DNA of 53,857 bases, from contig LCQK01000002.1 of assembly GCA_001004105.1 (NCBI GenBank), positions 141,419-195,275 of the forward strand, given 5' to 3'. Below are positions 16,166 to 37,705 of the stretch, in pieces (positions within the stretch are counted from its first letter, which is position 1; each line of letters opens with the position of its first letter). Both the position numbers and the translations under genes were made by a program. The DNA is from Candidatus Jorgensenbacteria bacterium GW2011_GWB1_50_10. GTDB taxonomy: Bacteria > Patescibacteriota > Minisyncoccia > UBA6257 > GWB1-50-10. The notes beneath the pieces were generated by a model, which saw nothing but the letters and a program-made list of their open reading frames with translations, did no database searches and had not been told where the DNA came from.

Positions 16166-17977
16166 ATGCGAAAAATCTTCCCCGTTGCCCTTATTTTAAT
16201 CGTTGTTTTTCTTTTGATGCTGAACGCCGCCCTAAAGGAGACGGCAATCTTTGATGAGACCGCCCATATTGCCGCCGGTTACGGTTACGTGCGATATTTG
16301 GACTACCGCCTGAACCCGGAGCATCCGCCGCTTGTGAAAGCTCTCTCCGCTCTGCCGCTTCTCTTTATGAATCTCAATTTCCCCACCGAAGCGGAGAGCT
16401 GGCAGAAAGACGTAAACGGCCAGTGGGACGTCGGAAACCGCTTTCTTTATTCGGAAGGCAATAATCCTGATGAAATCGTCGGCGCAGCAAGAATCTTCCC
16501 GATTATTCTTACTCTCCTTACGATTATTTTGATTTACGTCTGGTCGCTCCAAATTTTGGGCCGCGGCTGGGCGTTAGTCCCCGCTTTTCTTTTCGGTTTT
16601 TCGCCATCCGTTCTTGCTCACGGTCACTACGTCACGACCGACGTCGGAGCGACTTTAGGCGTGCTCTTCGGCTTCTACTTTTTCACTAAAATGCTTGCAA
16701 CGCCCTCACGGAAAAAATCAATCCTCGCCGGATTGGCCTTAGGCGCGGCGCTCCTTATGAAATTTTCCAACGTTCTCCTTCTGCCGATTTTTATCTTTAT
16801 CGGCTTCATCCACTACATTGCAAAAATCAAAAGGGATGGCGCAGCGCTCCATTATTTCTTGGTTTACTTCAAAAGATTCGTCCTGATGTTTTTTGCAGCG
16901 CTCTTTTTGATTTACGCGGTTTATTTTCTATTCACACTCAATTATCCGGCAACTAAAGAACTATCCGATGCCGCCACCACTCTCAGTTCTTTCAACCCGC
17001 GCTGGCTCGTCGATTTGGATTTAGCGCTCATTAAAAACAGCGTTCTCCGTCCCTTAGGCCAGTATCTTTTCGGACTGCTCATGATTCTCCAGCGGGCCGC
17101 CGGCGGCAACACCGCCTATTTTTTGGGCGACCTTTCCGCAGAGGGCTGGTGGTACTACTTCCCCGTTGTGTTTTTGCTCAAAGAACCGTTGCCGTCGCTA
17201 ATTATGATTTTATTGGCTGTGATTATCGGTGTTTCAAAATTCCTGCCTGCTGGCAGGCAGGTAAAATTTAAAAACTTCTCCGACTATTTAGGAACAAATG
17301 TCGCGGAGTTCGGCATGCTCGTTTTCATCGTCATCTACTGGGTACAAAGTATGAGGAGCCCGCTGAACATAGGAATTCGCCACCTTCTGCCTACTATGCC
17401 CTTTATTTACATTCTCGCAACCGGCACCCTGAAATCGTGGATTTTGAAACTCCACGAGTTTCCCCATCATTTTTTGCCTTCGCTTTTTGCCCGCATCAAA
17501 GCATTCTTCAAAATCTCGCTTAAATTCGCACTTATAATCATTTTGCTCGTCTGGTACGCCGCGGAAACCTTCGCCGGGAGTCCTTATTACCTCTCTTATT
17601 TCAACGAAATCGGCGGGGGGATCAAAAACGGCTACAAATACGTCACGGATTCAAACTATGACTGGGGACAGGATTTGAAGCGGCTCGCCGTTTTCGTTAA
17701 GGAGAACAACATTCAAAAAATCGCCGTGGATTACTTCGGCGGCGGCAGTCCGAAATACTATCTTGGAGAGGACGTGGCAGAAAACTGGTGGTCGGCTCGC
17801 GGCAACCCTAAAGACAAAGGAATTGAATGGCTCGCGATTTCCGTAAACTCCCTCCAGGGCGCCCAGGCCATTGCCGACGCTGATTTGAACCGCAAACCCG
17901 AGGACGAATACTCGTGGCTCCGCGACATCAAACCCGCCGCCCGCGCCGGCACATCAATATTCATTTACAAATTCTAA
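16166..17977 (+). CDS. GT39/ArnT-like (PMT family) membrane glycosyltransferase
   Basis: 603 aa and polytopic. The N-terminal loop DETAHIAAGYGY...PEHPPLVK is typical of lipid-carrier-dependent glycosyltransferases. It has a large C-terminal soluble domain and is the only plus-strand gene. Confidence 0.7.
   Translation: MRKIFPVALILIVVFLLMLNAALKETAIFDETAHIAAGYGYVRYLDYRLNPEHPPLVKALSALPLLFMNLNFPTEAESWQKDVNGQWDVGNRFLYSEGNNPDEIVGAARIFPIILTLLTIILIYVWSLQILGRGWALVPAFLFGFSPSVLAHGHYVTTDVGATLGVLFGFYFFTKMLATPSRKKSILAGLALGAALLMKFSNVLLLPIFIFIGFIHYIAKIKRDGAALHYFLVYFKRFVLMFFAALFLIYAVYFLFTLNYPATKELSDAATTLSSFNPRWLVDLDLALIKNSVLRPLGQYLFGLLMILQRAAGGNTAYFLGDLSAEGWWYYFPVVFLLKEPLPSLIMILLAVIIGVSKFLPAGRQVKFKNFSDYLGTNVAEFGMLVFIVIYWVQSMRSPLNIGIRHLLPTMPFIYILATGTLKSWILKLHEFPHHFLPSLFARIKAFFKISLKFALIIILLVWYAAETFAGSPYYLSYFNEIGGGIKNGYKYVTDSNYDWGQDLKRLAVFVKENNIQKIAVDYFGGGSPKYYLGEDVAENWWSARGNPKDKGIEWLAISVNSLQGAQAIADADLNRKPEDEYSWLRDIKPAARAGTSIFIYKF
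17242..17261. repeat. GC-rich palindrome CCTGCCTGC-TG-GCAGGCAGG inside the GT39 gene
   Basis: Same core as the palindrome in elements 6624-6816 and 32431-32658. Translated in frame as FLPAGRQVKF. Confidence 0.8.
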
Positions 17978-17978
17978 A

Positions 17979-18197
17979 TCAATCGGAAATTTTCCATTGG
18001 ACGCGGCCGACGATGCCGCTCCGCAGGCGCACCTTGATGCCGCGCGGGTGATTCTCCCCCGGGCTCAAGACTTCCTTTACGAACCCCTGGGTGTAATTCT
18101 TCGTGCCGTAGTGCTCCTTCTCAATAATCCAGACGAAATCCCCCGGACGAATCTCGCTCCGCTTCGGCGGTTTGGGATTATCGGTTGAATTCCTCAT
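17979..18197 (-). CDS. YwbE-family small protein (DUF2196-like)
   Basis: 72 aa. GDFVWIIEKEHYGTKNYTQGFVKEVLSPGENHPRGIKVRLRSGIVGRV matches my recollection of the YwbE family. Confidence 0.6.
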   Translation of the reverse strand: MRNSTDNPKPPKRSEIRPGDFVWIIEKEHYGTKNYTQGFVKEVLSPGENHPRGIKVRLRSGIVGRVQWKISD

Positions 18198-18200
18198 CTC

Positions 18201-18800
18201 TTAAAGATTCTTAATATCTTTCACCAGTTCCGGGAAATCCGATTGGAGGAAATGCCCTCTTTTTTTGAAAACCCTCACGACGGCGCCGGGTAGGGCTTTC
18301 TTGTATTTTCCCAAGTGGGCAAACGGAACGACCTTGTCGTCCTTACTGTGATACAGGAAAATCCGGCCGCCCTGTTTTCTCAGCTTTTTCAAGCTCTCGG
18401 GGAGAGTAAAGCCGCCCAATGATTCGTCCAAACTTTTATCGTCATATGGCCCAGAAATCAAAAAAGTCGCCCGAACTTTCTTCGGAAACCTGTTTTCCGA
18501 CAGATATTTTGCCAAAAATATCGCTCCGAGGGAGTGACCAATTAAAATGACTTTGTTTCTTAGGGCTCGCGCGATTTTTCCGAACAGAATTTTCCATTCC
18601 TCGTACCTCGCGTTCATCGGGTTCGGCATTTTCAGCAAGAGAACGTCGAATCCCCGACCGAGCTTTATTCCTAGAGAATTAGCCCACTTTTCGCCCCGGT
18701 ATCTGTCCAAATCAACTTTCAGTTTTTTCAAAAACGACAAATAATCCTTGTATGAGTCAAAAGTCGTCCCGCCGTGAATCATCAACACCTGTTTTTTCAT
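18201..18800 (-). CDS. Alpha/beta hydrolase (YdeN/RBBP9-like serine hydrolase)
   Basis: 199 aa with the nucleophile elbow GHSLG, a late Asp (SKDDKVVP) and His (RGHF). Confidence 0.65.
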   Translation of the reverse strand: MKKQVLMIHGGTTFDSYKDYLSFLKKLKVDLDRYRGEKWANSLGIKLGRGFDVLLLKMPNPMNARYEEWKILFGKIARALRNKVILIGHSLGAIFLAKYLSENRFPKKVRATFLISGPYDDKSLDESLGGFTLPESLKKLRKQGGRIFLYHSKDDKVVPFAHLGKYKKALPGAVVRVFKKRGHFLQSDFPELVKDIKNL

Positions 18801-18843
18801 AAACCCATTCTACCTCAAAACCTTTTATAGAGGGAAGTAACCG

Positions 18844-18865
18844 GAACAATTCCATAGAATTGTTC
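18844..18865. repeat. Palindrome GAACAATTC-CATA-GAATTGTTC
   Basis: 9-bp perfect arms, just downstream of the ArsR gene 18876-19154. A sister copy lies at 19186-19207. Confidence 0.8.
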
Positions 18866-18875
18866 AATGAACTTT

Positions 18876-19154
18876 TTATTTAAAGACGTTAGCCAAAATT
18901 CTACGGAAATCTTTCGGCATCTGGGGATTGAGTGAATAAAACACATGACCAGCAGAACCTTGGAATTCCAAAACATCTAAATTTCTAAGCATGGCTAAAT
19001 GGTTTGATGTGGCCTTGAAAGAAATATTCAAACTCTCTGCAATGTCCCCTACGTTCATCTTGCCGCCGTCAGAGAGTATCTTTATTATTTTCAGCCGATT
19101 GATATTAGCCAGGGCCCGAAAAATTAAGGTCCATCTTTTCATATTTTTTCGCAA
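18876..19154 (-). CDS. ArsR-family winged-helix transcriptional regulator
   Basis: 92 aa. FRALANINRLKIIKIL...MNVGDIAESLNISFKATSNHLAMLRNLDVL is an ArsR/SmtB-type HTH. Confidence 0.75.
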   Translation of the reverse strand: MRKNMKRWTLIFRALANINRLKIIKILSDGGKMNVGDIAESLNISFKATSNHLAMLRNLDVLEFQGSAGHVFYSLNPQMPKDFRRILANVFK

Positions 19155-19185
19155 CTTATTATAATTATAATATTATAACACCATA

Positions 19186-19207
19186 GGACAATTCTATGGA
19201 ATTGTTC
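19186..19207. promoter_or_regulatory. Imperfect palindrome GGACAATTC-TATG-GAATTGTTC upstream of the ArsR gene (candidate operator)
   Basis: One mismatch between the arms. Lies 32-53 nt upstream of the ArsR start at 19154. Confidence 0.45.
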
Positions 19208-19220
19208 AATGAGGATTATT

Positions 19221-19547
19221 CTAATTTTTGGTGGCTAAGCTAACCCATTCCGTGAAAACCTCCCGGTCTTCCAGAATTTCTTCCGGCACAGACCAGTAAG
19301 GGAGTTTGACTGGCTCCGGGTGGCTTTTTTTAACGTAATCAAACTGCTTGCCGCCTTTTTCCTCAAATACCCGGCTAGTTTCTTTGTTTCCTTTGAAATA
19401 CAAATCGCTATCAATTATGAACGCAAAAATTTTGCCGTTCTTGTAGATTCCCCACCCGGAGAACATCGGCCGCGAAACAACACCGTCTATCCCGCCCAAA
19501 AGGTCGTAGAGGACGTAGTCGTGAAAGCTCTTATCGCGTTTTAGCAT
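19221..19547 (-). CDS. TfoX N-terminal domain protein
   Basis: 108 aa. VVSRPMFSGWGIYKNGKIFAFIIDSDLYFK matches the TfoX_N pattern. The stop codon sits inside a junction-motif copy (GCCACCAAAAATTAG). Confidence 0.65.
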   Translation of the reverse strand: MLKRDKSFHDYVLYDLLGGIDGVVSRPMFSGWGIYKNGKIFAFIIDSDLYFKGNKETSRVFEEKGGKQFDYVKKSHPEPVKLPYWSVPEEILEDREVFTEWVSLATKN

Positions 19548-19554
19548 TAACTTA

Positions 19555-19575
19555 TCTCTCCTAATTTTTTGGTGG
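19555..19575 (-). repeat. Junction motif copy (CCACCAAAAAATTAGGAGAGA)
   Basis: Minus strand: CCACCAAAAAATTAGGAGAGATAAGTTA-ATG (TfoX start). Here GGAGAG is at Shine-Dalgarno distance from the ATG. Confidence 0.8.
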
Positions 19576-19591
19576 TACTCTTAAATATAAC

Positions 19592-19623
19592 ATGGCCCGG
19601 GAAACCTGCGTTTCCCGGGCCAT
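19592..19623 (-). terminator. Strong hairpin after the thioesterase gene
   Basis: ATGGCCCGGGAAAC-GCAG-GTTTCCCGGGCCAT (14-bp stem) followed by GUUAUAUUU on the minus strand. Confidence 0.5.
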
Positions 19624-19636
19624 ATTTTCCTCCAAG

Positions 19637-20008
19637 CTACTTGAGCTTTGCCCGGATTTCGTCGGGAATCCGAGCCGGGCCTTCGCTCGTCGTGAGGACC
19701 ACGACGAGCTTCATCTCCGCCGCGACCACGCCGTCTTTGGTGGCCGCCTGGTAATAGGTTATGCTCGTGTTGCCGACGGAAACCTCGGTCGTGATTTCCA
19801 CCTCGTCGCCTTCGCGAAGCTCCTGGTGATAAGCAACCTCCATGAGCTTCACGGGGCTTCGCAGGCCGAACAGCTGCTCAATCGCGGCAAAACCGATGCC
19901 GCGCTCGTTCATGAACGCGTCCTGAGCCGGCTCGAACAAACGCGGGTAGGCCTTGTAGTTCTTGTGGCAGTATTCATCAATATCCGAGCCATCGACGACG
20001 ACTTTCAT
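19637..20008 (-). CDS. Hotdog-fold acyl-CoA thioesterase-like protein
   Basis: 123 aa. Size and pattern fit the 4HBT/YbgC-like family, but the assignment is weak. Confidence 0.45.
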   Translation of the reverse strand: MKVVVDGSDIDEYCHKNYKAYPRLFEPAQDAFMNERGIGFAAIEQLFGLRSPVKLMEVAYHQELREGDEVEITTEVSVGNTSITYYQAATKDGVVAAEMKLVVVLTTSEGPARIPDEIRAKLK

Positions 20009-20063
20009 AGAAACCTCCGTATCTACCGGTTACACTAGGATGTGCCTGATTGCGATGTTCCAA

Positions 20064-20092
20064 ATACAAAAAAGCACATTATGTGCTTTTGG
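20064..20092 (-). terminator. Intrinsic terminator downstream of the ArsR-like gene and a junction motif
   Basis: Minus strand: AAAAGCACA-UAA-UGUGCUUUU followed by UUGUAUUU. Confidence 0.6.
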
Positions 20093-20102
20093 TCAATTAA
20101 TT

Positions 20103-20122
20103 ACTCTCCTAATTTTTGGTGA
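20103..20122 (-). repeat. Junction motif copy (TCACCAAAAATTAGGAGAGT)
   Basis: Same orientation as the other copies. Followed by a terminator rather than by a start codon. Confidence 0.8.
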
Positions 20123-20131
20123 TTGTTTTCT

Positions 20132-20169
20132 ACAATATTCTAACATTCTTAAGAATGTTAGAATATTGT
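20132..20169. repeat. 38-bp perfect palindrome ACAATATTCTAACATTCTT|AAGAATGTTAGAATATTGT
   Basis: Checked base by base. Overlaps the last codons and stop of the wHTH gene 20158-20424. Confidence 0.9.
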
Positions 20170-20424
20170 CATAAACTTGAAGAAAGATTCGCCGTAAGGC
20201 GAGAGCGTGTGGGTCACTTGCCGACCTTGATATCTTTTGTTCAAAAGACCAGCCTGGACTAACCGGCGAGTATGCTGGGAAATATTTTTGAAATCAGCGC
20301 CAAGCTCATCGGCAAGTCCCTCAACGGAAATCCCTTCGTTTCTTTCAACCGTCAACAAAATGGCTATCCGCCAGTGATTAGCTGCTCCTTTGAAATATCG
20401 TTCAAGTTGTTTGGGTGTCTTCAT
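20158..20424 (-). CDS. ArsR-like winged-helix transcriptional regulator
   Basis: 88 aa. GAANHWRIAILLTV...SVEGLADELGADFKNISQHTRRLVQAGLL is HTH-like. Confidence 0.65.
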   Translation of the reverse strand: MKTPKQLERYFKGAANHWRIAILLTVERNEGISVEGLADELGADFKNISQHTRRLVQAGLLNKRYQGRQVTHTLSPYGESFFKFMTIF

Positions 20425-20447
20425 ATCTTTCTATTTTGTCATTGTAC

Positions 20448-20487
20448 CACAACACTCCAACATTCTATAGAATGTTGGAGTGTTGTG
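20448..20487. repeat. 40-bp perfect palindrome CACAACACTCCAACATTCTA|TAGAATGTTGGAGTGTTGTG
   Basis: Checked base by base. Lies between the start of the wHTH gene and the 3' end of the DUF559 gene. Confidence 0.9.
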
Positions 20488-20527
20488 ATATACTCCCCCT
20501 TGAATACAATGAAGTCTCCGGCGGTTG

Positions 20528-21262
20528 TTAGCGAGCGGCTTTTTGAATTTTCCTCAAGCAGGCCTCCGCGTTCTCAATAATCTCCCGTTCCTTAAGGCGG
20601 ATGACCCGCCAGCCGGCTCGCCGGAGACAAAAATCTTTCACTCTGTCCCGGCGCTTCTGGAGTTTGCCGGCATGAGCCTTTTTATTATCGCATTCAATGG
20701 CCAGACGCCGGTTGCGGCGGACAATCGCAAAATCCAGGCGAAAACGTTTGCCGCAGGCGGAAACCGGAAATTCCGATAGGGCTTTAATGCCCCAGCGCCG
20801 GAGACAGCGGCCGATAATCTCCTCAGTCGGCATAATGTCGTAGAGCTCCAAAATATTCCGGCTTGAGAGCAGGTTTTTCAAAGTTGTGAAACCGAAAGAA
20901 ACGCGGCGGGGAACGATGTTCCTCACGGGCCGCGGCAGTTTCTTTAGTTCCTTAAATTCGAGTTTCAGGTAATCATCTTTGGCCCGCGGATGACCGATTC
21001 CTTCTGGCAGAAGTTTAATCCTCTTATAAACTTTCCGCCGGGAGACCCTAGCATAGTATTCTATTCTTTTGCCGTGCCGGCCAAAAACCGCCGGCTGGTA
21101 GAAAGCAACGTATTTAAATTTCCGTTTGGGCAGGAAAGCAAGGGGAATTCGGTACCAGCGCTCACAAAAAAGGATACGCCGGTCGCTCCTGCTCTTCAAA
21201 ACACTGACCAAAACGTTTTTATTATTCAACTTCTTTTTAACCATCACGGCTCGCCTTTTCAT
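20528..21262 (-). CDS. DUF559 (Vsr/PD-(D/E)xK-like) endonuclease-domain protein with unknown N-terminal domain
   Basis: C-terminus FRLDFAIVRRNRRLAIECDNKKAHAGKLQKRRDRVKDFCLRRAGWRVIRL fits the DUF559 pattern. Start moved to the ATG at 21262 (MKRRAV...), because the track start at 21280 lies inside a palindrome. Confidence 0.65.
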   Translation of the reverse strand: MKRRAVMVKKKLNNKNVLVSVLKSRSDRRILFCERWYRIPLAFLPKRKFKYVAFYQPAVFGRHGKRIEYYARVSRRKVYKRIKLLPEGIGHPRAKDDYLKLEFKELKKLPRPVRNIVPRRVSFGFTTLKNLLSSRNILELYDIMPTEEIIGRCLRRWGIKALSEFPVSACGKRFRLDFAIVRRNRRLAIECDNKKAHAGKLQKRRDRVKDFCLRRAGWRVIRLKEREIIENAEACLRKIQKAAR

Positions 21263-21264
21263 TT

Positions 21265-21304
21265 CACAACATTCCAACATTCTATAGAATGTTGGAATGT
21301 TGTG
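21265..21304. repeat. 40-bp perfect palindrome CACAACATTCCAACATTCTA|TAGAATGTTGGAATGTTGTG
   Basis: Differs from 20448-20487 only at a symmetric pair of positions (C>T and G>A), so the dyad stays perfect. Confidence 0.9.
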
Positions 21305-21319
21305 GTGCTTTAAGGATAA

Positions 21320-22630
21320 CTAATCACTGGGGATTAGTCTTTTAAATCGGGAACGGATCCCTCCGGTTTGTCTGCCAAGTTCTTTTGCCAGCACTGTTTC
21401 TTCCGATTTTCTTTGCAGTTCGGCATCAAACTCTAAAATTTCCGGGTGGACCTCAAGAGATTTTTCGTTAAACCCAAGAAGCTTCATTCCGTCAAGCGTT
21501 CGAACTCTTGAGAGCGCCACGTACCCCATACCTCTTTCAAAAGCGGCCGATAGATCAATCAAGGCGGCATCCAGCGTAATTCCCTGACTTTTGTGAATGG
21601 TAATCGCCCAAGCGAGACGGAGCGGAATTTGAGTAATTTTGGCGAGCCGTTTGCCGTTTTCCTCAACCATCCAGCTCTCCGGAGAAACACTGATATTTCT
21701 GCCTTTTAGGGTGATTACTCTGGGGTGGCCTTCTTCACTAAAGCCGACCACCCGGCCAAGCGTCCCATTCGCATATCCTTTCTCAAAATTGTTTTTAACG
21801 AACATTACTACGGCATCTTTTTTCAAAACTAAATTTTCGGGGGCGAGGCAACCGTTTTTCAAGGACTGTACAATGGCGGGAACACCGTGTGTTTCCATCC
21901 GATAATTTACCTCCTCTCCCGGCAAGCGCTGAAGTTCACGGAAGTTCTCCGCATCCACATCGGCGTTGTGCGAATAAAGTTTGGTAACGCGCCCGTTTGG
22001 CAAGTTCGCGTCGCACCGTCCGCGCAGACGGATTCTTATACTTTCATTAACCTCCGTGCGCCGAATGGCATTTAACACTTCGGAAAGTTTTTCGTCTCCA
22101 TGCCGGTGTTGCTCGTCAAGGTAACAAACTTTAAGACCAAGTTCTTCCCAAGCCGTAGAACGATACGCAAACTGCGGCGGGGGCTCATTTTCGTTCGCAA
22201 CCGGCGGGAGTTGAAAAAAATCGCCGCAGAGCACCACCTGCATTCCGCCAAAGGGTTCTTTGCCTCTCACGGCTCTTGCCACCCTATCAACCAATGAGAG
22301 GCGAGCCGCATCAAGCATGGAAACCTCGTCAATAATAAGCGTCTCGGTTTTGGCAAGACGCTTGGCAACCCTGCGGTTTGCCGCAAACATCCTAACTTCT
22401 TTATCTGAAGCGGTGCGTGAAATCCCGATTCCCGCCCAGGAGTGGATTGTAATTCCGCCAAGATGCGTGGCGGCAATGCCGGTTGAGGCGGTAATCCCGA
22501 CGTCGGTTTTTTTCTTCCGCAAGAACTCAATGTATTCGTTTAGAAGGTAAGTTTTTCCGCTGCCGGCGGCTCCGGTAAGATAAACGTTGTGGCCGGCTTT
22601 TAAAATTTCAAAAGCTTCTTTTTGAGTCAT
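21320..22630 (-). CDS. PIF1/RecD-like (SF1B) ATP-dependent DNA helicase
   Basis: 436 aa. Walker A GAAGSGKTY, Walker B LIIDEVSM, a CGDFFQLPPV motif and the C-terminal AITIHKSQG...YVALSR. Confidence 0.8.
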   Translation of the reverse strand: MTQKEAFEILKAGHNVYLTGAAGSGKTYLLNEYIEFLRKKKTDVGITASTGIAATHLGGITIHSWAGIGISRTASDKEVRMFAANRRVAKRLAKTETLIIDEVSMLDAARLSLVDRVARAVRGKEPFGGMQVVLCGDFFQLPPVANENEPPPQFAYRSTAWEELGLKVCYLDEQHRHGDEKLSEVLNAIRRTEVNESIRIRLRGRCDANLPNGRVTKLYSHNADVDAENFRELQRLPGEEVNYRMETHGVPAIVQSLKNGCLAPENLVLKKDAVVMFVKNNFEKGYANGTLGRVVGFSEEGHPRVITLKGRNISVSPESWMVEENGKRLAKITQIPLRLAWAITIHKSQGITLDAALIDLSAAFERGMGYVALSRVRTLDGMKLLGFNEKSLEVHPEILEFDAELQRKSEETVLAKELGRQTGGIRSRFKRLIPSD

Positions 22631-22637
22631 AAATCTA

Positions 22638-23045
22638 TTCTCCTAATTATATCTCAAAGAAAAAACGGCGCCGTTTTGATTACGGCGCCGCGGCGCGAAC
22701 TCTGGTTTCATGCGTCATCTCCTCCCGAATTCAAACGTTACCCTGTTTGCGGGCACGGTGTTTGATATCTTGGAGGAGAGTTTCGCCAGCACTTCATGGC
22801 CGGGGAACGGTCCCGAGAGCATCACGATTGGGGTGTAGGTCTTGGCATCACCCTGGACCCCGGCCGAGAAGATGCCCTCCGGGACTTCAACGGCAAGACC
22901 GTGCGGTCCTGGTGCACGTCAGACCAATCCCAGTCGCTGGGCTTGAATTCAAACGGCATTTATTCCTCTCTTCTGGGTACTAATTATCTTTTACTCCCCG
23001 CAGTGAGAAAAATCAATCCTAATCTACTCTCCTAATTTTTTGGCG
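22638..23045 (-). repeat. GC-rich ~410-bp repeated element, copy 1 (frameshifted small ORF or structured RNA, plus own terminator)
   Basis: Near-identical to 25921-26340. On the minus strand it has a junction motif, SD+ATG (22959) MPFEFKPSDWDWSDVHQ..., then a second frame GLAVEVPEGIFSAGVQGDAKTYTPIVMLSGPFPGHEVLAKLSSKISNTVPANRVTFEFGRR-stop (22715). A terminator GGCGCCGU-AAUCAAA-ACGGCGCC+GUUUUUUC follows (22655-22690). Confidence 0.85.
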
Positions 23046-23064
23046 AGCAGGTTCTGTTTATCAA

Positions 23065-23298
23065 CTATCCTCTTAACCATTCTGCTTGAGAAATCCCTGA
23101 CTGACGAATGATGCCTTTTAAGGTGCGCGGTTTTAGAGTTCTTGAACCGTGAAAGGGCACACATACCTGCCGAAAAGCGCCGCCGGCGTGACCGGCATAA
23201 AAATAATGACTCCCTTTCGTATGGTTTAAACGGAAATCGTGCGCCTTCAAAAAACGCACGACGTCTTCAGCCGTCCAATTATGTAGGCCTCTCGGCAT
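23065..23298 (-). CDS. hicA: HicA-family mRNA interferase toxin
   Basis: 77 aa. VVRFLKAHDFRLNHTKGSHYFY...VPFHGSRTLKPRTLKGIIRQSG fits YcfA/HicA. The gene is 1 nt downstream of the HicB-like ORF. Confidence 0.75.
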   Translation of the reverse strand: MPRGLHNWTAEDVVRFLKAHDFRLNHTKGSHYFYAGHAGGAFRQVCVPFHGSRTLKPRTLKGIIRQSGISQAEWLRG

Positions 23299-23299
23299 A

Positions 23300-23632
23300 T
23301 TACGCCGGCACCAAAGCCCGACCGCCCAGAATGTTCATCCTTCCGGCAAAAAATACCGAATTCGGCTGCCGCTTCGCTTGTATGCTGCCACGCCACTTTT
23401 CTTCGTATTCCCTGTCCACAGCTTGATTCAAAATGTGCGGCCGTGCCTTAGTTTTCTTGGCGGATTCCAAATACCCCTGCACCGCTTCAAAAAGAAGGAG
23501 CATTGCCTCCCGGGACGTATCTCCTGTTTCCACGATATTGAATTCCAAAGCAACCGCGTACCAAACGCCTGCTTCCCTAAACACCAAAATACGAACCGAA
23601 CCCCTCTGTAAGGTATTCTTGTACTTAGCCAT
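23300..23632 (-). CDS. hicB: HicB-like antitoxin
   Basis: 110 aa. ILVFREAGVWYAVALEFNIVETGDTSREAMLLLFEAVQGYLE has a HicB/UPF0150-like fold signature and is paired with hicA. Confidence 0.6.
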   Translation of the reverse strand: MAKYKNTLQRGSVRILVFREAGVWYAVALEFNIVETGDTSREAMLLLFEAVQGYLESAKKTKARPHILNQAVDREYEEKWRGSIQAKRQPNSVFFAGRMNILGGRALVPA

Positions 23633-23638
23633 AGTTAC

Positions 23639-23668
23639 ATTATAAACATATCAAGAGAAATTAATCAA
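23639..23668 (-). promoter_or_regulatory. Putative promoter giving a leaderless hicB transcript
   Basis: Minus strand: TTGATT-18 nt-TATAAT, then only 6 nt (GTAACT) before the ATG at 23632. Confidence 0.4.
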
Positions 23669-23678
23669 AAAACCTAGG

Positions 23679-23699
23679 TTTCTCCTAATTTTTTGGTGG
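23679..23699 (-). repeat. Junction motif copy (CCACCAAAAAATTAGGAGAAA)
   Basis: Begins 11 nt after the glycosylase stop. Followed by the mini-hairpin AACCTAGGTT plus a T-run. Confidence 0.8.
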
Positions 23700-23709
23700 T
23701 TACAATTCA

Positions 23710-24678
23710 TTATAACCTTATCTCTTTTTCCAGCCACGGGATTTTTTCGTTCTTTCTCCTCCAAAAAACGTCTTCCCAAATGTAATGAACCGCAAGCATT
23801 GAATATTTGCCGTATCGCTTCAGAATGTCATCGCGAATTTTCTTCGCAGGCACCGACTTCTTTCCATAAAACAATCTGGAATATATTTTCTGCTGCCACG
23901 GGGCGATATGCTCAAAAGTATCGTAATGGTGGTAGGCCTCAAAAAGAAGAATGCGGGCGGTTTCCGGCCCCACACCATAAAGTTTCATTAATGCTTCCTT
24001 TGTGCTTTCCTTATCAAGCTGGCGGAGTTTATACTCATCAACTCTCCTACTGGTAAAATCATGCGAAAGGCGTCTGATGAATTTGGCGCGATAACCGACT
24101 TTCAAATCTCGGAGTTTCTGCTCCGAAACTTCTTCCAAATCTTCGGGAAGCCAAATTGCCCAAAGTTTCTTCTTATCAAATTCAATTTTTGTCCCGAATT
24201 TCCCGAGGAGAGCATCCAGCATCTGCTGACTTCGCCGGACCGTGGTATTTTGGAGAACGATGGCAATAATAAGGAGTTCGTAAAGAGTGTATTGGCTCGC
24301 GTTCCTCATGCCCAGCCATTTTTTGAAAATCGGATAAAATCGCCTGTCTTTCCTAGCAAGACCGTTAAATTCCTTCAAGTCAGCGTATAGTTCAAAACGC
24401 CACGCTATCTCATTTTTCAATTGCTCTACTTCCTTGTCCGTAAAATCTCTGTTTGAATAAAATAAGACTTTCAGTTTTGGCTTTGCCACCGTTCCGGCAT
24501 TTTCTATTTTCAAGCCATAAAGTCTTTTGCCAAAGCGTAATCCCTGCCAATATTTGCCGGGTTCCCAATCATCAAGCTTCAATTTATTGGGAAAATGTGA
24601 CGGCTTATGAAAAGTCCCGTCAAAATGAAAAGGCGCTTTTGGAGCAATATTAAAATTTCTCTTGTGACTTAACTTCAT
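23710..24678 (-). CDS. HhH-GPD superfamily DNA glycosylase (AlkA/Ogg-like)
   Basis: 322 aa with the helix-hairpin-helix LMKLYGVGPETARILLFEA followed by an Asp-containing segment. Confidence 0.6.
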   Translation of the reverse strand: MKLSHKRNFNIAPKAPFHFDGTFHKPSHFPNKLKLDDWEPGKYWQGLRFGKRLYGLKIENAGTVAKPKLKVLFYSNRDFTDKEVEQLKNEIAWRFELYADLKEFNGLARKDRRFYPIFKKWLGMRNASQYTLYELLIIAIVLQNTTVRRSQQMLDALLGKFGTKIEFDKKKLWAIWLPEDLEEVSEQKLRDLKVGYRAKFIRRLSHDFTSRRVDEYKLRQLDKESTKEALMKLYGVGPETARILLFEAYHHYDTFEHIAPWQQKIYSRLFYGKKSVPAKKIRDDILKRYGKYSMLAVHYIWEDVFWRRKNEKIPWLEKEIRL

Positions 24679-25304
24679 TAAAGTTTTACCTCTTCGCCCT
24701 CACCTACTAAGGTATATAAATCGTTTTCAACTAAAATTGCTTGTCCGTCTCGTAAAATTCTTACGGGATGCGATGCTGTCTTTATCTTTTCCCTAAATAA
24801 ATTTTCCAATTCATCTTTATAATGTACTTTCAAGAGAAAGGGTACGAGGTTTAATCCAGTAAAATCAGTTAATCCATAGTCATCTTTTTTATCTGGTCCC
24901 CACGTTGAGGTTTCAATTGTAGGGCATACTATGTACGCGCCCGCGCTCGTTCCGACATAGATAACGCCTCTTAAAACCAATTCTTTAAGAACTTTATCGC
25001 ATCCGCTTTCTTTGATAGCCTTCAGAAGGTAAAAAGTATTACCTCCCTCAACGTGGATAACGTTTTTCCCACTAAAAAGCGCGTCTAATTCATTCAAGCT
25101 TTTCCCTTCAACGTCCATCTCTTCAAAGTCTAGTCCATTTGCGTGCATGCTTTTTTTGTGGTTCTCCAGATAATTTAGATCTCGCGCCCCCTTCGAGGCG
25201 GTGGTGATATAAGCAATTCTAATATGATCTTTCGGGACTCCTAAAAGATCATAACCTTTTTCAATCAGAAATTTACCATTTGATGCAAGTAGAAGTTTTT
25301 TCAT
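24678..25304 (-). CDS. pepE: Peptidase E / S51-family dipeptidase-like protein
   Basis: 208 aa. GGNTFYLL and the nucleophile context VYVGTSAGA are typical of S51 peptidases. Confidence 0.65.
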   Translation of the reverse strand: MKKLLLASNGKFLIEKGYDLLGVPKDHIRIAYITTASKGARDLNYLENHKKSMHANGLDFEEMDVEGKSLNELDALFSGKNVIHVEGGNTFYLLKAIKESGCDKVLKELVLRGVIYVGTSAGAYIVCPTIETSTWGPDKKDDYGLTDFTGLNLVPFLLKVHYKDELENLFREKIKTASHPVRILRDGQAILVENDLYTLVGEGEEVKL

Positions 25305-25326
25305 ATCTTTTTAATTTTAAACACCT

Positions 25327-25346
25327 ACTCTCCTAATTTTTGGTGG
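25327..25346 (-). repeat. Junction motif copy (CCACCAAAAATTAGGAGAGT)
   Basis: GGAGAG lies about 25 nt upstream of the pepE ATG, too far for a simple ribosome-binding-site role. Confidence 0.8.
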
Positions 25347-25358
25347 TTTTCTTAATAT

Positions 25359-25392
25359 GACATTCTAACATTCTGCAGAATGTTAGAATGTC
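25359..25392. repeat. 34-bp perfect palindrome GACATTCTAACATTCTG|CAGAATGTTAGAATGTC
   Basis: Checked base by base. Shares the AACATTCT...AGAATGTT core with 20132, 20448 and 21265. Confidence 0.9.
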
Positions 25393-25395
25393 TAA

Positions 25396-25914
25396 TCACA
25401 ATTCGAATTCGTGGACGGAGGTGTTACCGATGTGGTCCAGTTCTTCTTTTTTATGCAAATAATGTATCAATCTTATTATGCCGCCGTGGGTCACGACAAG
25501 AACGGTTTTATCGGGATAACTCTCTTTAACCTCCTTTATGAATTTCTCAAGCCGAGCTTTAACATCTTCCACTGATTCGCCGCCGTAGGGACGGTAGTCG
25601 TACTCTGGGTCACCAATACCCATTCTCTCCCCTTTTTCCCGCGCTTTACCTGATAAAGACCCTATATCGTGTTCCTTGAGATAATCACTAAAAATCAGTT
25701 TCTTATTGAATCGCTCCGCGATAATTTCCGCGGTCTCTTTAGCACGTTTCAGCGGTGATGAAAAAATGACGTCAAAATTATCTTCCAACTGATTAGCCAA
25801 TTCCCTGGCCTGATTCAAGCCCGCTTCGTTCAAAGATTCGTCTATCCGCTGACCCATTCGTCGGCGCAGTTTATTGTATTCCGTTTCCCCGTGCCGGACA
25901 AAAATGAATTTCAT
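25396..25914 (-). CDS. Histidine phosphatase family protein (phosphoglycerate-mutase-like)
   Basis: 172 aa with the RHGETEYN catalytic motif at the N-terminus and a later HGG. Confidence 0.8.
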   Translation of the reverse strand: MKFIFVRHGETEYNKLRRRMGQRIDESLNEAGLNQARELANQLEDNFDVIFSSPLKRAKETAEIIAERFNKKLIFSDYLKEHDIGSLSGKAREKGERMGIGDPEYDYRPYGGESVEDVKARLEKFIKEVKESYPDKTVLVVTHGGIIRLIHYLHKKEELDHIGNTSVHEFEL

Positions 25915-25920
25915 GGATTT

Positions 25921-26340
25921 ACTCTCCTATTATATCTCAAAAAGTAGCGGCGCCGTTTTGATTACGGCGCCGCGGTGCGAACATCGGCTCTCTGCGTTAT
26001 CTCCTCCCGAATTCAAACGTTACCCTGTTTGCGGGCACGGTGTTTGATATCTTGGAGGAGAGTTTCGCCAGCACTTCATGGCCGGGGAATGGTCCCGAGA
26101 GCATCACGATTGGGGTGTAGGTCTTGGCATCACCCTGGACCCCGGCCGAGAAGATGCCCTCCGGGACTTCAACGGCAAGACCGTGCGGTCTCCTCGGTTA
26201 GTCCCTGGTGCACGTCAGACCAATCCCAATCGCCGGGCTTGAATTCAAACGGCATTTATTCCTCCCTAGAAGTACTAACTATCTTTTACTCCTCGCAATA
26301 AGAAAAATCAATTCTAATCTACTCTCCTAATTTTTTGGCG
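25921..26340 (-). repeat. GC-rich ~420-bp repeated element, copy 2
   Basis: Same layout as copy 1: ATG at 26255, C-terminal frame stop TAA at 25997-25999, terminator 25938-25973. It carries a 14-nt insertion (GACTAACCGAGGAG) relative to copy 1. Confidence 0.85.
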
Positions 26341-26344
26341 GATT

Positions 26345-27028
26345 CTATTTTCTTCTAATAATCAGTTCTTCCTCGGGGTTATCTTTTTTGAGATTTTCAA
26401 TCAAGGTTTTGGCTACAGAACCGGGATCCATATACTTGTCATAATCCTCCGGCATCTTTTCATCAAAAAGGTGGGTTCTCATTCCGCCTGGATATACTGC
26501 CAATATCTTGATTTTCTCCGGTTGCGCCTCGAGGCGAAGCGATTTAGTAAAGCCGACTGCGGCATACTTGCTCGCAACATAACCGGATGAACCGGCACGG
26601 CCCTGGAGCGCGCTTGTTGATAGAATATTGACTATTGTGCCAGAGTGCTGTTTCTTCATTTGAATTAGAGCTACCCTTGAACCATGAATTGTGCCAAACA
26701 AATTAACTTCCACCATATCATGGACTCTTTTCAAATCCATTTCCTCCGCCGGCGCGTGAGGAACCCAAATACCGGCGTTGTTAACCCATACGTCAATTTT
26801 GCCGAATTTTTGGACGGCGAAATTGGCTAATTTGACCACCTCATTTTCATCAGTTACGTCTGCAGTAAAAACAGCAGCATTTAGTTCCCGACCGGCATTA
26901 TCTAACTCTGTGCCGCTGCGCGAGCTTAAAATTAATTTTGCGCCTTCTTTAGCAAAAGCAGCGGCTAAGGCCTTACCAAATCCCCCACTAGCCCCTGTTA
27001 TCACAACAATTTTGTCTTTAATAACCAT
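26345..27028 (-). CDS. Short-chain dehydrogenase/reductase (SDR)
   Basis: 227 aa with the cofactor motif TGASGGFG, NNAG, and the catalytic YVASK. Confidence 0.85.
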   Translation of the reverse strand: MVIKDKIVVITGASGGFGKALAAAFAKEGAKLILSSRSGTELDNAGRELNAAVFTADVTDENEVVKLANFAVQKFGKIDVWVNNAGIWVPHAPAEEMDLKRVHDMVEVNLFGTIHGSRVALIQMKKQHSGTIVNILSTSALQGRAGSSGYVASKYAAVGFTKSLRLEAQPEKIKILAVYPGGMRTHLFDEKMPEDYDKYMDPGSVAKTLIENLKKDNPEEELIIRRK

Positions 27029-27040
27029 ATAAATAAATCT

Positions 27041-27062
27041 ATTCTACTAATTTTTTGGTGGG
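27041..27062 (-). repeat. Junction motif copy, variant (CCCACCAAAAAATTAGTAGAAT)
   Basis: Overlaps the HAD gene C-terminus (…NPPKN-stop) and precedes the SDR ATG. Confidence 0.75.
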
Positions 27063-27640
27063 TTCAAAATCTCTCTCGTTTTTTCGGCGCTTTCGAATAA
27101 GTAAGATTTTATACCTAGGCCGTTTGCTACCGCAACGTTGCCCGGCGAATCATCAAAAAAGACGCACTCTTCCGGTTTTAAATTGTTTTCCTCAAGCAGT
27201 TTTTGGTAAGCGCCAGCATTGCTCTTTGTAAAACCGGTCTGCCATGAATAATAAACCTTCTCAAAAAGCTCTTTTAGAAACGGAAAGTTGTTATTGTAAA
27301 ATTTTGTTCTCTCAATAACGTTGTTCGAAAGAATGAAAAGTTTTACTCCCCTATCTTTCAATTCTCTGGCCAGTGATATCATTTCCGGAGCTTCTTTTTC
27401 GCCCGAAAACCAAAAGTCGAAGAAAGCTTCTTTTGATAAATCTAACCCCCACTTGTCAAAATATGGCTTCCAATAAGAAAAAGCGTCGCCGGCATCAGGC
27501 ATTCTCACTTTGGGCATAATAGCGTTCAGGGCTGGCAAAAATTCTTCTTGTTTGACACCAAATTTTTCCTCAAAACGTTCGCTCAACTTTCGGCTTTTTA
27601 TGAAGACGCCGTTTAAATCAAAAATAACAGCTTTAAACAT
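27047..27640 (-). CDS. HAD-superfamily hydrolase
   Basis: 197 aa with VIFDLNGV (motif I position), LSNN, and FFDDSPGNV (motif IV). Confidence 0.7.
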   Translation of the reverse strand: MFKAVIFDLNGVFIKSRKLSERFEEKFGVKQEEFLPALNAIMPKVRMPDAGDAFSYWKPYFDKWGLDLSKEAFFDFWFSGEKEAPEMISLARELKDRGVKLFILSNNVIERTKFYNNNFPFLKELFEKVYYSWQTGFTKSNAGAYQKLLEENNLKPEECVFFDDSPGNVAVANGLGIKSYLFESAEKTREILNPPKN

Positions 27641-27654
27641 GATATTTTGAATCT

Positions 27655-27674
27655 ACTCTCCTAGTTTTTGGCGA
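27655..27674 (-). repeat. Junction motif copy (TCGCCAAAAACTAGGAGAGT)
   Basis: Starts 3 nt after the Fic stop codon. Followed by AGATTCAAAATATC-ATG (HAD). Confidence 0.8.
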
Positions 27675-27677
27675 CCG

Positions 27678-28331
27678 TTACCTCCTACGTCTCTTTGCTT
27701 TAAAATACTCTAATTTCTTTCTTAGAGCTATCACGTAATTTTTCCTTTTGTGCTCTTCCAAACCGTCTATAATTATGTTTTCCAAACTGGAATAATTGCC
27801 GTCATCTGTCTGACGCATGGCCCTCAAGTATTGCGGCTTTTCTTTTTTAACGGCAATACTGGGCAAACCGGCTCGCATCAGAATCGCATCAATTAGTAAA
27901 CGCGAGGCGCGCCCATTGCCGTTTCTAAAAGGATGGATAGATGCCAAACGATGCGATAATTTCGCCGCCACGAATACTATTTTCTTGTATTCTTTTTCCG
28001 TTTTTGGTGGTTTTATATTTCTTGTTGCTTCTCTCAATTCATAGTCCAATTCGGCTATTTCGTTTGGAATATTTTTCCAATCGGTCATCTTTAAGGGCGT
28101 GCCGTCAATTCTCCGGAGATCCTGACTATTATCTTTCCGGTACTTGCCGCCGATCCCAGGTTGGCGCGCCACTGTAAATATAATCCTGTGCGCCTCCTTG
28201 ATGTACCGAATTTCAACAGGAAATTTCTTACGCAATAATCTCTTTATAATCCGATGTAAATAAGAATGGGCCTCCCAAAGGCCCTTTTCTTCAAGAATAT
28301 CTATGTCCTTCTTGCTTAACGAGCTTTGCAT
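27678..28331 (-). CDS. Fic-domain protein (AMPylase/toxin-like)
   Basis: 217 aa with the canonical Fic motif HPFRNGNGRASR. Confidence 0.85.
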   Translation of the reverse strand: MQSSLSKKDIDILEEKGLWEAHSYLHRIIKRLLRKKFPVEIRYIKEAHRIIFTVARQPGIGGKYRKDNSQDLRRIDGTPLKMTDWKNIPNEIAELDYELREATRNIKPPKTEKEYKKIVFVAAKLSHRLASIHPFRNGNGRASRLLIDAILMRAGLPSIAVKKEKPQYLRAMRQTDDGNYSSLENIIIDGLEEHKRKNYVIALRKKLEYFKAKRRRR

Positions 28332-28348
28332 GCAAAATAAACTATCCC

Positions 28349-28537
28349 TTAAAGAATAGCTCGCCGGGCTTCCTCCTTTGAAAGCTTATTGCCCTCCAAT
28401 TTATTGGAATAATAAACCGATTCGAAATTTTGCTCTTTATTCAAAACGGCTTTCTCAACTGGCGAAAGTTTGGGTAATTTCTGGATTTTTTTATCTAAAT
28501 CCAGAAGCTTCTTTATTTTCCTGTCGATTTTTTTCAT
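28349..28537 (-). CDS. Small protein carrying the Fic inhibitory-helix motif (antitoxin-like)
   Basis: 62 aa ending YYSNKLEGNKLSKEEARRAIL. SNKLEG fits the (S/T)xxxE(G/N) inhibitory motif. Lies 17 nt upstream of the Fic gene, in a different frame. Confidence 0.6.
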   Translation of the reverse strand: MKKIDRKIKKLLDLDKKIQKLPKLSPVEKAVLNKEQNFESVYYSNKLEGNKLSKEEARRAIL

Positions 28538-28555
28538 GAGAACCTTAGCAAGTAT

Positions 28556-28584
28556 AATATAGAATATTGTTTACTTTATGTCAA
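28556..28584 (-). promoter_or_regulatory. Putative sigma70-type promoter for the Fic module
   Basis: Minus strand: TTGACA (28584-28579)-17 nt-TATATT (28561-28556), about 20 nt before the ATG at 28537. Confidence 0.45.
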
Positions 28585-28623
28585 ATCCGAAAATAGCTCC
28601 CAAATATATCTTTATTGTAACAT

Positions 28624-28643
28624 ACTCTCCTAATTTTTGGTGG
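28624..28643 (-). repeat. Junction motif copy (CCACCAAAAATTAGGAGAGT)
   Basis: Starts 1 nt after the stop of the 87-aa membrane protein gene. It is the last copy before the AT-rich operon. Confidence 0.8.
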
Positions 28644-28644
28644 T

Positions 28645-28908
28645 TTATTTAAAAATCAAATATACGACCAAAAGAACAAACGCTATCCCCCAGTATGCGA
28701 CCCAAAATCTATCATAGTACTTTCTCCAGTTGGGTCGTTGCACCGGGCCATTTGGCGTCTTCATCCAATTGAAATGCGGGTAATAGTAAGAAAAAATTGA
28801 CTTGCTTCTTGTAAATTTCTCCTCCCCGCCAAGCCATTTAATAACGTGGCATGAAAAATCCCAAAAAATCATAACTAACAAAATGTATAGAATAATATCA
28901 ATTGTCAT
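28645..28908 (-). CDS. Small membrane protein, unknown function
   Basis: 87 aa with two hydrophobic helices at the termini and a Trp/Tyr-rich loop. Confidence 0.5.
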   Translation of the reverse strand: MTIDIILYILLVMIFWDFSCHVIKWLGGEEKFTRSKSIFSYYYPHFNWMKTPNGPVQRPNWRKYYDRFWVAYWGIAFVLLVVYLIFK

Positions 28909-37246: not shown

Positions 37247-37705
37247 TTATTCTATAGCAACGATTTTATACGTATTGAGGCCCGCGGCGGTTTGAACCGA
37301 GACCGTATCCCCCGCTTTATGGCCCAGGAGCGCCCGGCCGACCGGCGACTCATTAGAAATCATCCCTCCCGTCGGCCGCGCTTCGTTTGAGCCGACAATA
37401 TTGTAGGTAAAAGTATCGCCATTCTTTTCCAATTTCACGCGGCTGCCGATGCGCACCGTCGCCGTCCCGGACGATTTTTTGATGATGGAAGCGGCCCGAA
37501 GGAGTTCCTCAATTTCGCTTATTTTTTTCTCAAGCCGCGACTGTTCCTCCCGGGCTTCCTGGTATTCGGCGTTTTCGGACAAATCGCCAAGTTCCTTGGC
37601 GTGCTTCAGGCGCTTGGCCACCGCCTGCCGGCCTTCTTTCTTCAATTGACCGAGTTCGTTTTGAAGTTCGTCGTATTTTTCCTGGGATAAGTAGGTTATT
37701 TCCAT
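37247..37705 (-). CDS. greA: Transcription elongation factor GreA
   Basis: 152 aa with the coiled-coil LKHAKELGDLSENAEYQEAREEQ and a C-terminal FKBP-like domain. Confidence 0.95.
   Translation of the reverse strand: MEITYLSQEKYDELQNELGQLKKEGRQAVAKRLKHAKELGDLSENAEYQEAREEQSRLEKKISEIEELLRAASIIKKSSGTATVRIGSRVKLEKNGDTFTYNIVGSNEARPTGGMISNESPVGRALLGHKAGDTVSVQTAAGLNTYKIVAIE

Follow-up and report, generated by a model that had tools for sequence, protein, structure and literature searches.

The window analysed here, a stretch of 53,857 nucleotides, contains two near-identical GC-rich elements in which a coding-like signal is divided between two reading frames. This locus raises the question of whether such a layout represents a decaying gene, two overlapping small open reading frames (ORFs), a recoding event or a structured RNA, all of which were offered as candidates by the original prediction made from the sequence. 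The two loci, in the genome of a member of Candidatus Jorgensenbacteria (CPR), are paralogs of one small protein-coding gene. As a whole, the explanation that we consider very likely is that of paralogous genes resembling the tail of GMP synthase from which the stretch coding for helix alpha-1 is missing, most likely through assembly errors.

Layout of the Duplicated Element

Both copies are located on the minus strand (copy 1 at 22638-23045 and copy 2 at 25921-26340), are each ~410 nt long, and show ~90% column identity when aligned over their whole length. Only one differing position was found in the 3' core of the copies (~183 nt), whereas they diverge more in their 5' part and also past the stop codon, as had been proposed for the latter. 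The GC content of the element (0.57-0.585 in 200-nt windows) is above that of the whole window (0.46) and of the neighbouring genes (0.38-0.50). The third-codon-position GC amounts to 0.66, compared with 0.34-0.57 in the neighbouring genes; the second frame with a G/C bias at the third position is present, as predicted.

In both copies, the ORF starts with ATG CCG TTT GAA TTC, encodes MPFEFKP(S/G)DWDWSDVHQ, and is preceded by GAGAGGA or GGGAGGA, so that the ribosome-binding site and the start codon could be read in each. The core peptide ending in HGLAVEVPEGIFSAGVQGDAKTYTPIVMLSGPFPGHEVLAKLSSKISNTVPANRVTFEFGRR lies in a differing frame in each copy and is closed by TGA (22717-22715) in copy 1 and by TAA (25999-25997) in copy 2, which agrees with the difference in stop codons described before. 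At the frame switch, copy 2 has 14 additional nucleotides, GACTAACCGAGGAG. The expected strong intrinsic terminators were recovered as well: the hairpins at 22691-22665 and 25973-25947, in both of which 8-9 of the 10 pairs are GC and a T run comes next, are the top two terminator-like hairpins within 20-29 kb of the window. The 11-nt repeat CGTTTGAATTC was found at both ends of the core (22945-22955 and 22727-22737), where it codes for (P/T)FEF at both ends of the protein. In the protein family, the N-terminal FEF and the C-terminal NRVTFE are conserved independently of each other.

The RNA structure of the leader of copy 1 was not significant (z = -0.42). A possible upstream ORF of 10 codons with a TTG start just past the junction motif was seen on the minus strand of both copies (22993-23025 and 26288-26320). 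Its peptides would be MIFLTAGSKR (copy 1) and MIFLIARSKR (copy 2), with a conservation between the copies of only about that of the surrounding leader.

Taken together, each copy would be a monocistronic small gene composed of an initiation-type motif, a leader of ~65 nt, a putative ribosome-binding site with ATG, an ORF and a predicted intrinsic terminator (Table 1).

Table 1. Positions of the features of the two copies and of their surroundings in the window.
Feature	Positions	Strand	Basis
Copy 1, junction / translation-initiation-type motif CGCCAAAAAATTAGGAGAGTAG	23024-23045	minus	exact motif match
Copy 1, 5' leader with Shine-Dalgarno-like GAGAGGA at 22964-22970	22960-23023	minus	sequence reading
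Copy 1, gene 5' fragment, nt 1-52 (codons 1-17 + 1 nt), MPFEFKPSDWDWSDVHQ	22908-22959	minus	100% identity, L001 6001-6052
Copy 1, gene 3' fragment, nt 129-321 including TGA	22715-22907	minus	100% identity, L001 6129-6321
Copy 1, predicted intrinsic terminator GCGGCGCCGTAATCAAAACGGCGCCGT, then T run	22655-22691	minus	hairpin scan
Copy 2, junction motif	26319-26340	minus	alignment and motif match
Copy 2, gene 5' fragment, nt 1-66 (codons 1-22), MPFEFKPGDWDWSDVHQGLTEE	26190-26255	minus	100% identity, L001 2643-2708
Copy 2, gene 3' fragment, nt 129-321 including TAA	25997-26189	minus	comparison with L001; gene nt 67-128 (62 nt, residues 23-43) absent
Copy 2, predicted intrinsic terminator	25937-25973	minus	hairpin scan
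Genes between the copies: histidine phosphatase, peptidase S51, 322-aa protein, HicB/HicA pair	23065-25914	minus	
HicA/HicB pair	23065-23632		
MTES_1575/DUF559 endonuclease-like protein	20528-21280		
PIF1/RecD-like helicase	21320-22630		PDC-S68 and RecD-like model matches
Fic protein	27678-28331		SoFic and PDC-S04 model matches
Motif site	19557-19572	minus	
Motif site	20101-20119	minus	
Motif site	23024-23043	minus	
Motif site	23680-23696	minus	
Motif site	25325-25343	minus	
Motif site	26319-26338	minus	
Motif site	27039-27058	minus	
Motif site	27653-27671	minus	
Motif site	28622-28640	minus	

Intact Gene in Other Assemblies

The core peptide was used as a query against the protein collection and led to a single cluster, represented by P0001, a single-frame protein of 106 aa (MPFEFKPSDWDWSDVHQGLTEERRERSRLVVAEIVKRVGEIVEPHGLAVEV...TFEFGRR, with the full C-terminal end NRVTFEFGRR). 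The first peptide of the original prediction stands at its start and the second at its end, with ~21-26 residues between them that are missing from the window. The cluster holds four further 106-aa variants (P0004-P0007), of which P0005 and P0006 are recombinant, as well as two NCBI entries of Candidatus Jorgensenbacteria bacterium GW2011_GWC1_48_8. Counted with these variants, P0001 is coded on at least 13 contigs (ENA, JGI, Logan). JGI assemblies and de Bruijn graph assemblies (127- and 141-mer) of the PRJNA268031 read sets are among them, and the genes are intact on all 13. It should be noted that the 13 contigs of P0001 were retrieved via the intact product, and such a look-up is incapable of returning deleted forms.

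The search for an intact single-frame form, suggested along with the original prediction, was thus positive, and the 106-aa gene was found at both exact loci in other assemblies of the same clone. Locus L001, part of a 162-kb contig from the groundwater metagenome PRJNA268031, has the gene order of the window with both loci intact. Positions 16715-28897 of the window are 100% identical to it except that 76 nt are absent from copy 1 and 62 nt from copy 2, the deletion junctions being 22908/22907 and 26190/26189; in copy 1, the identity stops exactly at this boundary. Positions 1-20853 match contig L060 at 100.000% identity without gaps. Independent assemblies therefore match positions 1-28897 (~29 kb) at 100.000%, and the two deletions are the sole differences. 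The identity of the gene, its intact form and the exact boundaries of the deletions were in this way observed directly.

The two-frame layout arises because these 76 and 62 nt are missing from a single-frame gene of 106 codons for amino acids. In copy 1, the absence of gene nt 53-128 (76 nt, residues 18-43) puts the 3' fragment out of frame with the 5' fragment. The 14 extra nucleotides of copy 2, previously described as an insertion, are real but are not an insertion: they are gene nt 53-66, kept in copy 2 and lost in copy 1. Overlapping small ORFs need not be invoked and find no support. In the window, the absence of the stretch coding for helix alpha-1 splits each gene into two frames. Whether artefact or real deletion, the two-frame layout reflects damage to an ordinary gene and not a designed feature.

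A third lesion was found in the NCBI contig LCPO01000012.1 (L012) of Jorgensenbacteria GW2011_GWC1_48_8, which is 100% identical to the window over 8.2 kb. At the copy-1 locus, it has an in-frame deletion of 111 nt resulting in a 69-aa protein (MPFEFEPHGLAVEV...). The right ends of the 76-, 62- and 111-nt deletions lie within 2 nt of each other, immediately before ACCGCACGG, which opens a run of ~180-190 nt that is identical between the paralogs except for one base. The junctions read CACCAGG/ACCGCACGG in copy 1, GAGGAG/ACCGCACGG in copy 2, and GAATTC/GAACCGCACGG. Between the intact paralogs, there are ~14 nucleotide differences inside the 76 nt absent from copy 1 versus 1 in the next ~190 nt, and the absent segment is the part in which the two paralogs diverge most.

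Recoding and Structured RNA

Of the 14 codon differences between the intact paralogs, 10 are synonymous (the TGA/TAA stop counted) and 4 non-synonymous, and the earlier argument that the differences are constrained by codons was upheld.

To join the frames, programmed frameshifting or another recoding event would have to shift by -1 in copy 1 and by +1 in copy 2. The two-frame layout is the only point in its favour, and this explanation, raised in the original prediction, is extremely improbable: every homologue is single-frame, including those at the same loci in the same clone, opposite shifts would be required in the two copies, the joined product would be devoid of the helix conserved in the family, and no slippery heptamer was seen at the junctions CAC CAG GAC CGC and GAG GAG ACC GCA. 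Genes with a programmed frameshift, such as prfB (+1) and dnaX (-1), likewise extend over two frames. However, such genes are recognised by a conserved two-frame layout and a slippery site at the junction, and the copies in the window have neither: their homologues are all single-frame, there is no slippery site, and the shifts needed are opposite.

The GC content above that of the surroundings and a fold z-score of -1.9 for the gene would agree with the GC-rich core being a structured non-coding RNA or a cis-regulatory element. Against this, no Rfam family was matched at the gathering score (the only matches were chance-level ones to animal miRNA models, E 0.4-0.9), the substitutions between the paralogs are codon-patterned, and there is deep conservation at the protein level together with a confident protein fold. 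The probability that the core is such an RNA or element is accordingly negligible.

Origin of the Deletions

Frame-disrupting lesions relative to intact orthologues, one of the marks of a pseudogene, are present in the form of the 76-nt and 62-nt internal deletions. The proposal of decaying gene copies was thus right in placing the given sequence in the class of disrupted genes, but the disruptions are probably not biological, as they are the sole differences in 29 kb.

Judging from the compared sequences, the deletions are probably local assembly errors at a two-copy repeat. We favour this reading because no other difference from same-clone assemblies exists in ~29 kb, because the deletions fall at a site divergent between the paralogs and adjoining a long identical run, because a third assembly carries a further deletion that stops, on the right, within 2 nt of those of the window, and because the absent piece codes for a long helix kept in every homologue. 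Three differing lesions are found in one 110-nt segment of the two-copy repeat in one clone (the window and the NCBI genome). Contigs often end or change path within the repeat: contig L011 ends inside it, contigs L006, L008 and L009 pass from the flank of copy 1 to that of copy 2, and P0003 is a gene cut short by a contig end, where the NCBI genome of the same clone breaks inside the second copy. No obvious microhomology or k-mer overlap was seen at the deletion junctions, and no concrete assembler mechanism can therefore be named.

Alternatively, the deletions may be real, with a sub-population devoid of helix alpha-1 in both paralogs owing to very recent pseudogenisation or to a deletion hot spot whose 3' boundary is fixed; both copies would then be dead pseudogenes. 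The three differing alleles with right boundaries within 2 nt would fit such an origin, as would the strain-variable nature of the region (contigs L002 and L004 are without copy 2 upstream of the phosphatase gene) and the existence of the recombinant variants P0005 and P0006. We nevertheless regard real deletions as unlikely. The 29 kb are otherwise identical to assemblies with intact genes, and the loss from two paralogs in one clone plus a third allele elsewhere would demand an extraordinary site-specific rate. The deleted DNA contains no hairpin (z +0.8 and +1.0) and there is no clear microhomology. Finally, no intact/deleted polymorphism was observed among the contigs found via intact products (13 for P0001), a route by which deleted forms are not retrievable.

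Two specific mechanisms were considered and rejected. The DNA fold of the deleted segments is no stabler than that of shuffled sequence, which speaks against a hairpin-driven deletion, and most substitutions that separate the paralogs are transitions, which run both ways and are not adenine-specific, which speaks against a diversity-generating retroelement. It is conceivable, but very improbable, that the helix-alpha-1 segment is deleted at high frequency with a 3' boundary fixed before ACCGCACGG and a variable 5' one, serving as an on/off switch of the small protein resembling the GMP synthase tail, and that the gene copies are also recombination sites circularising a 3.3-kb module.

The pattern of the deletion junctions gave no match in the representative genomes (the source genome is not among them) or in the metagenome contigs. 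This negative result is weak because the control pattern of the intact form matched one contig only in the metagenome collection. The window's own 45-aa ORF and 108-aa antisense ORF, with which contigs carrying the deletions were sought, had no exact product on record; neither had the window gene at 37705-39624.

Local assembly errors have been described in short-read metagenome-assembled genomes, where the consensus may not be supported by even one read, and they were suspected to be especially prominent with IDBA-UD (Chen et al. 2020, Genome Res, PMC7111523). As in those cases, the consensus of the window is not common to assemblies of the same population, the lesions are located at a repeat with paralog and strain variation, the gene call is truncated or frameshifted, and a further lesion of this kind is present in the NCBI genome of the clone. 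The two-frame feature that drew attention to this locus is thus most likely not biological. A recoding-like signal in a metagenome-assembled genome that vanishes on comparison with assemblies of the same population calls for caution, and each locus is best annotated as one gene for a 106-aa protein.

Surroundings of the Copies

The junction motif noted at the start of each copy was confirmed: AAAATTAGGAGAGTAG has 8 matches at no more than 2 mismatches, compared with 0.01 expected. In its wider form, (C)CACCAAAAA(A)TTAGGAGAGTAG(ATT), ~10 occurrences were seen, all of them on the minus strand and only in the 9-kb accessory stretch 19557-28640. Every occurrence is on the coding strand and is followed by a start codon after 5-90 nt, the expected count of the motif being 0.01-0.5. 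The motif resembles either a promoter-leader and ribosome-binding module common to several genes or a cassette boundary; the breakpoint of contigs L002 and L004 upstream of the phosphatase gene is located at this motif. In these two contigs, which come from two other samples, the C-terminus of a membrane-like protein (L002 1-124 and L004 1-131, compared at window position 25929) replaces copy 2 before the block of phosphatase, S51, HicBA and copy 1. Copy 2 and the position of the module are therefore strain-variable.

The two gene copies flank a 3.3-kb block of accessory genes. They could be direct repeats bounding a mobile or amplifiable module that would recombine into a circle or tandem copies. 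Three short independent contigs, L006 (85-2406), L008 (1-1003) and L009 (1-698), join the HicA side of copy 1, the gene and the phosphatase side of copy 2, and such a junction of HicA, gene and histidine phosphatase (from upstream of copy 1 to downstream of copy 2) is what a circle or a tandem duplication would be expected to produce. The crossover, however, falls inside the identical run of ~180 nt, which is longer than the k-mers of the assemblers, so that chimeric graph paths explain the junction equally well, and the block contains no integrase or recombinase. A module of this kind is improbable.

Judged by its gene content, the region 20528-28331 looks like an accessory or defence-type island (Table 1). 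Near-perfect long palindromes of the type ACA(A/C)ATTC(T/C)AACATTCTnnAGAATGTT(A/G)GAAT were also seen at 20125-20176, 20445-20491, 21261-21306 and 25362-25389. They adjoin genes of small HTH (ArsR/MarR-type) regulators and follow the phosphatase gene, and may be operators or bidirectional terminators.

Relationship to GMP Synthase

The protein family was collected with HMMER by searching all of 1.84 billion representatives exhaustively, which yielded 77 representative clusters at E <= 1e-3 and 36 at E <= 1e-10, most members being 80-170 aa long. One of them, P0037 (2605 aa, 12 matched stretches), was discarded as a spurious repeat-protein match with He_PIG and RTX repeats, which leaves 76 of the 77 as real clusters. 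The conserved core of the family corresponds to residues 32-104 of the 106-aa protein. A subset that includes this gene also keeps the N-terminal FEFxPxDWDWSDxHxGL(S/T)xER; P0008, which belongs to it, is 53% identical to the protein over the full length. Helix alpha-1 (model residues 21-45), coded by the segment absent from the window, is present in all aligned homologues.

When the PDB was searched, no matches were obtained with the 67-aa core alone, and only chance-level ones (signal recognition particle, type III effector; E > 1) with the 106-aa protein alone. The sequence search succeeded with the family profile only: the profile of 51 members matched 13 solved GMP synthase chains (E 5.4e-9 to 2e-6), always in the C-terminal domain, the alignments spanning profile positions ~26-106. 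The Pfam family PF00958 (GMP_synt_C) was matched by 34 of the 51 members at E < 0.01, P0021 reaching 28.4 bits. As single sequences, P0001 (15 bits, E 0.025) and the core of the window (16.6 bits) stayed below the gathering score of 27 bits. The AlphaFold2 model of the 106-aa protein had a pLDDT of 93.8 and a pTM of 0.85, and in the Foldseek comparison with the PDB ranks 1-10 were all GMP synthases (probability 1.00, E 3e-4 to 4e-3, query-normalised TM 0.46-0.57). Profile homology and the modelled fold thus both place the protein in the GMP_synt_C superfamily, with the single-sequence Pfam score remaining under its threshold.

The 106-aa protein matched no family in PADLOC, PHROGs or NCBIfam, and its relatives gave only weak matches to guaA models. 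The motif [VA]GV[QG]GDxRTY, common to the family and to true guaA, recovered guaA genes of 500-650 aa, and all those listed end in (I/V/T/F)(E/G)WE. A search of the representative genomes with the family alignment gave only genuine guaA (500-650 aa) among the matches listed and is uninformative on stand-alone members. No conserved neighbour gene was found for three distant stand-alone homologues; one distant homologue is located after lexA near uvrAB and one near a uracil-DNA glycosylase. Some relatives are fused with other domains, namely PurS in P0021 (58.8 bits) and MOSC in P0053, and these fusions hint at a link to purine metabolism. In P0010, the domain is preceded by an N-terminal region that resembles a phosphoribosyltransferase by eye, where Pfam gives no match.

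The intact ORF thus encodes a stand-alone divergent homologue of the C-terminal (dimerisation) domain of GMP synthase with the N-terminal extension FEFxPxDWDWSD. The protein probably represents a small module that forms dimers and was kept from GuaA, with a role that may involve purine nucleotides. As a gene, it adds a new member to the superfamily of GMP synthase C-terminal domains and is otherwise an ordinary one that has been duplicated and that is broken in this assembly. The stand-alone derivatives of this domain form a widespread family without annotation (76 clusters), which is mildly novel.

The comparison with GMP synthase itself shows what separates the two and what they have in common. 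The SKPPATIEWE tail of GMP synthase contacts XMP. In contrast to the enzyme, the family proteins stand alone at 80-170 aa and have no ATP-pyrophosphatase or glutamine amidotransferase domain, no insertion of ~12 residues (RAVxSxDxMTADW) and no C-terminal SKPPATIEWE tail. A functional GMP synthase has an ATP-pyrophosphatase domain in the same polypeptide and a KPPxTIEWE tail, and the 106-aa protein has neither. Lacking this domain, the insertion and the tail, a protein of the family cannot itself be a GMP synthase. Meanwhile, the alpha-beta-beta-beta-alpha-beta core is common to the family and to the C-terminal domain of GuaA (PF00958; 1GPM, 7SBC, 2DPL, and the D1 subdomain of human 2VXO), and both share the signature (S/T)VGVxGDxRTY ... 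NRV(T/V)(F/Y)(E/D).
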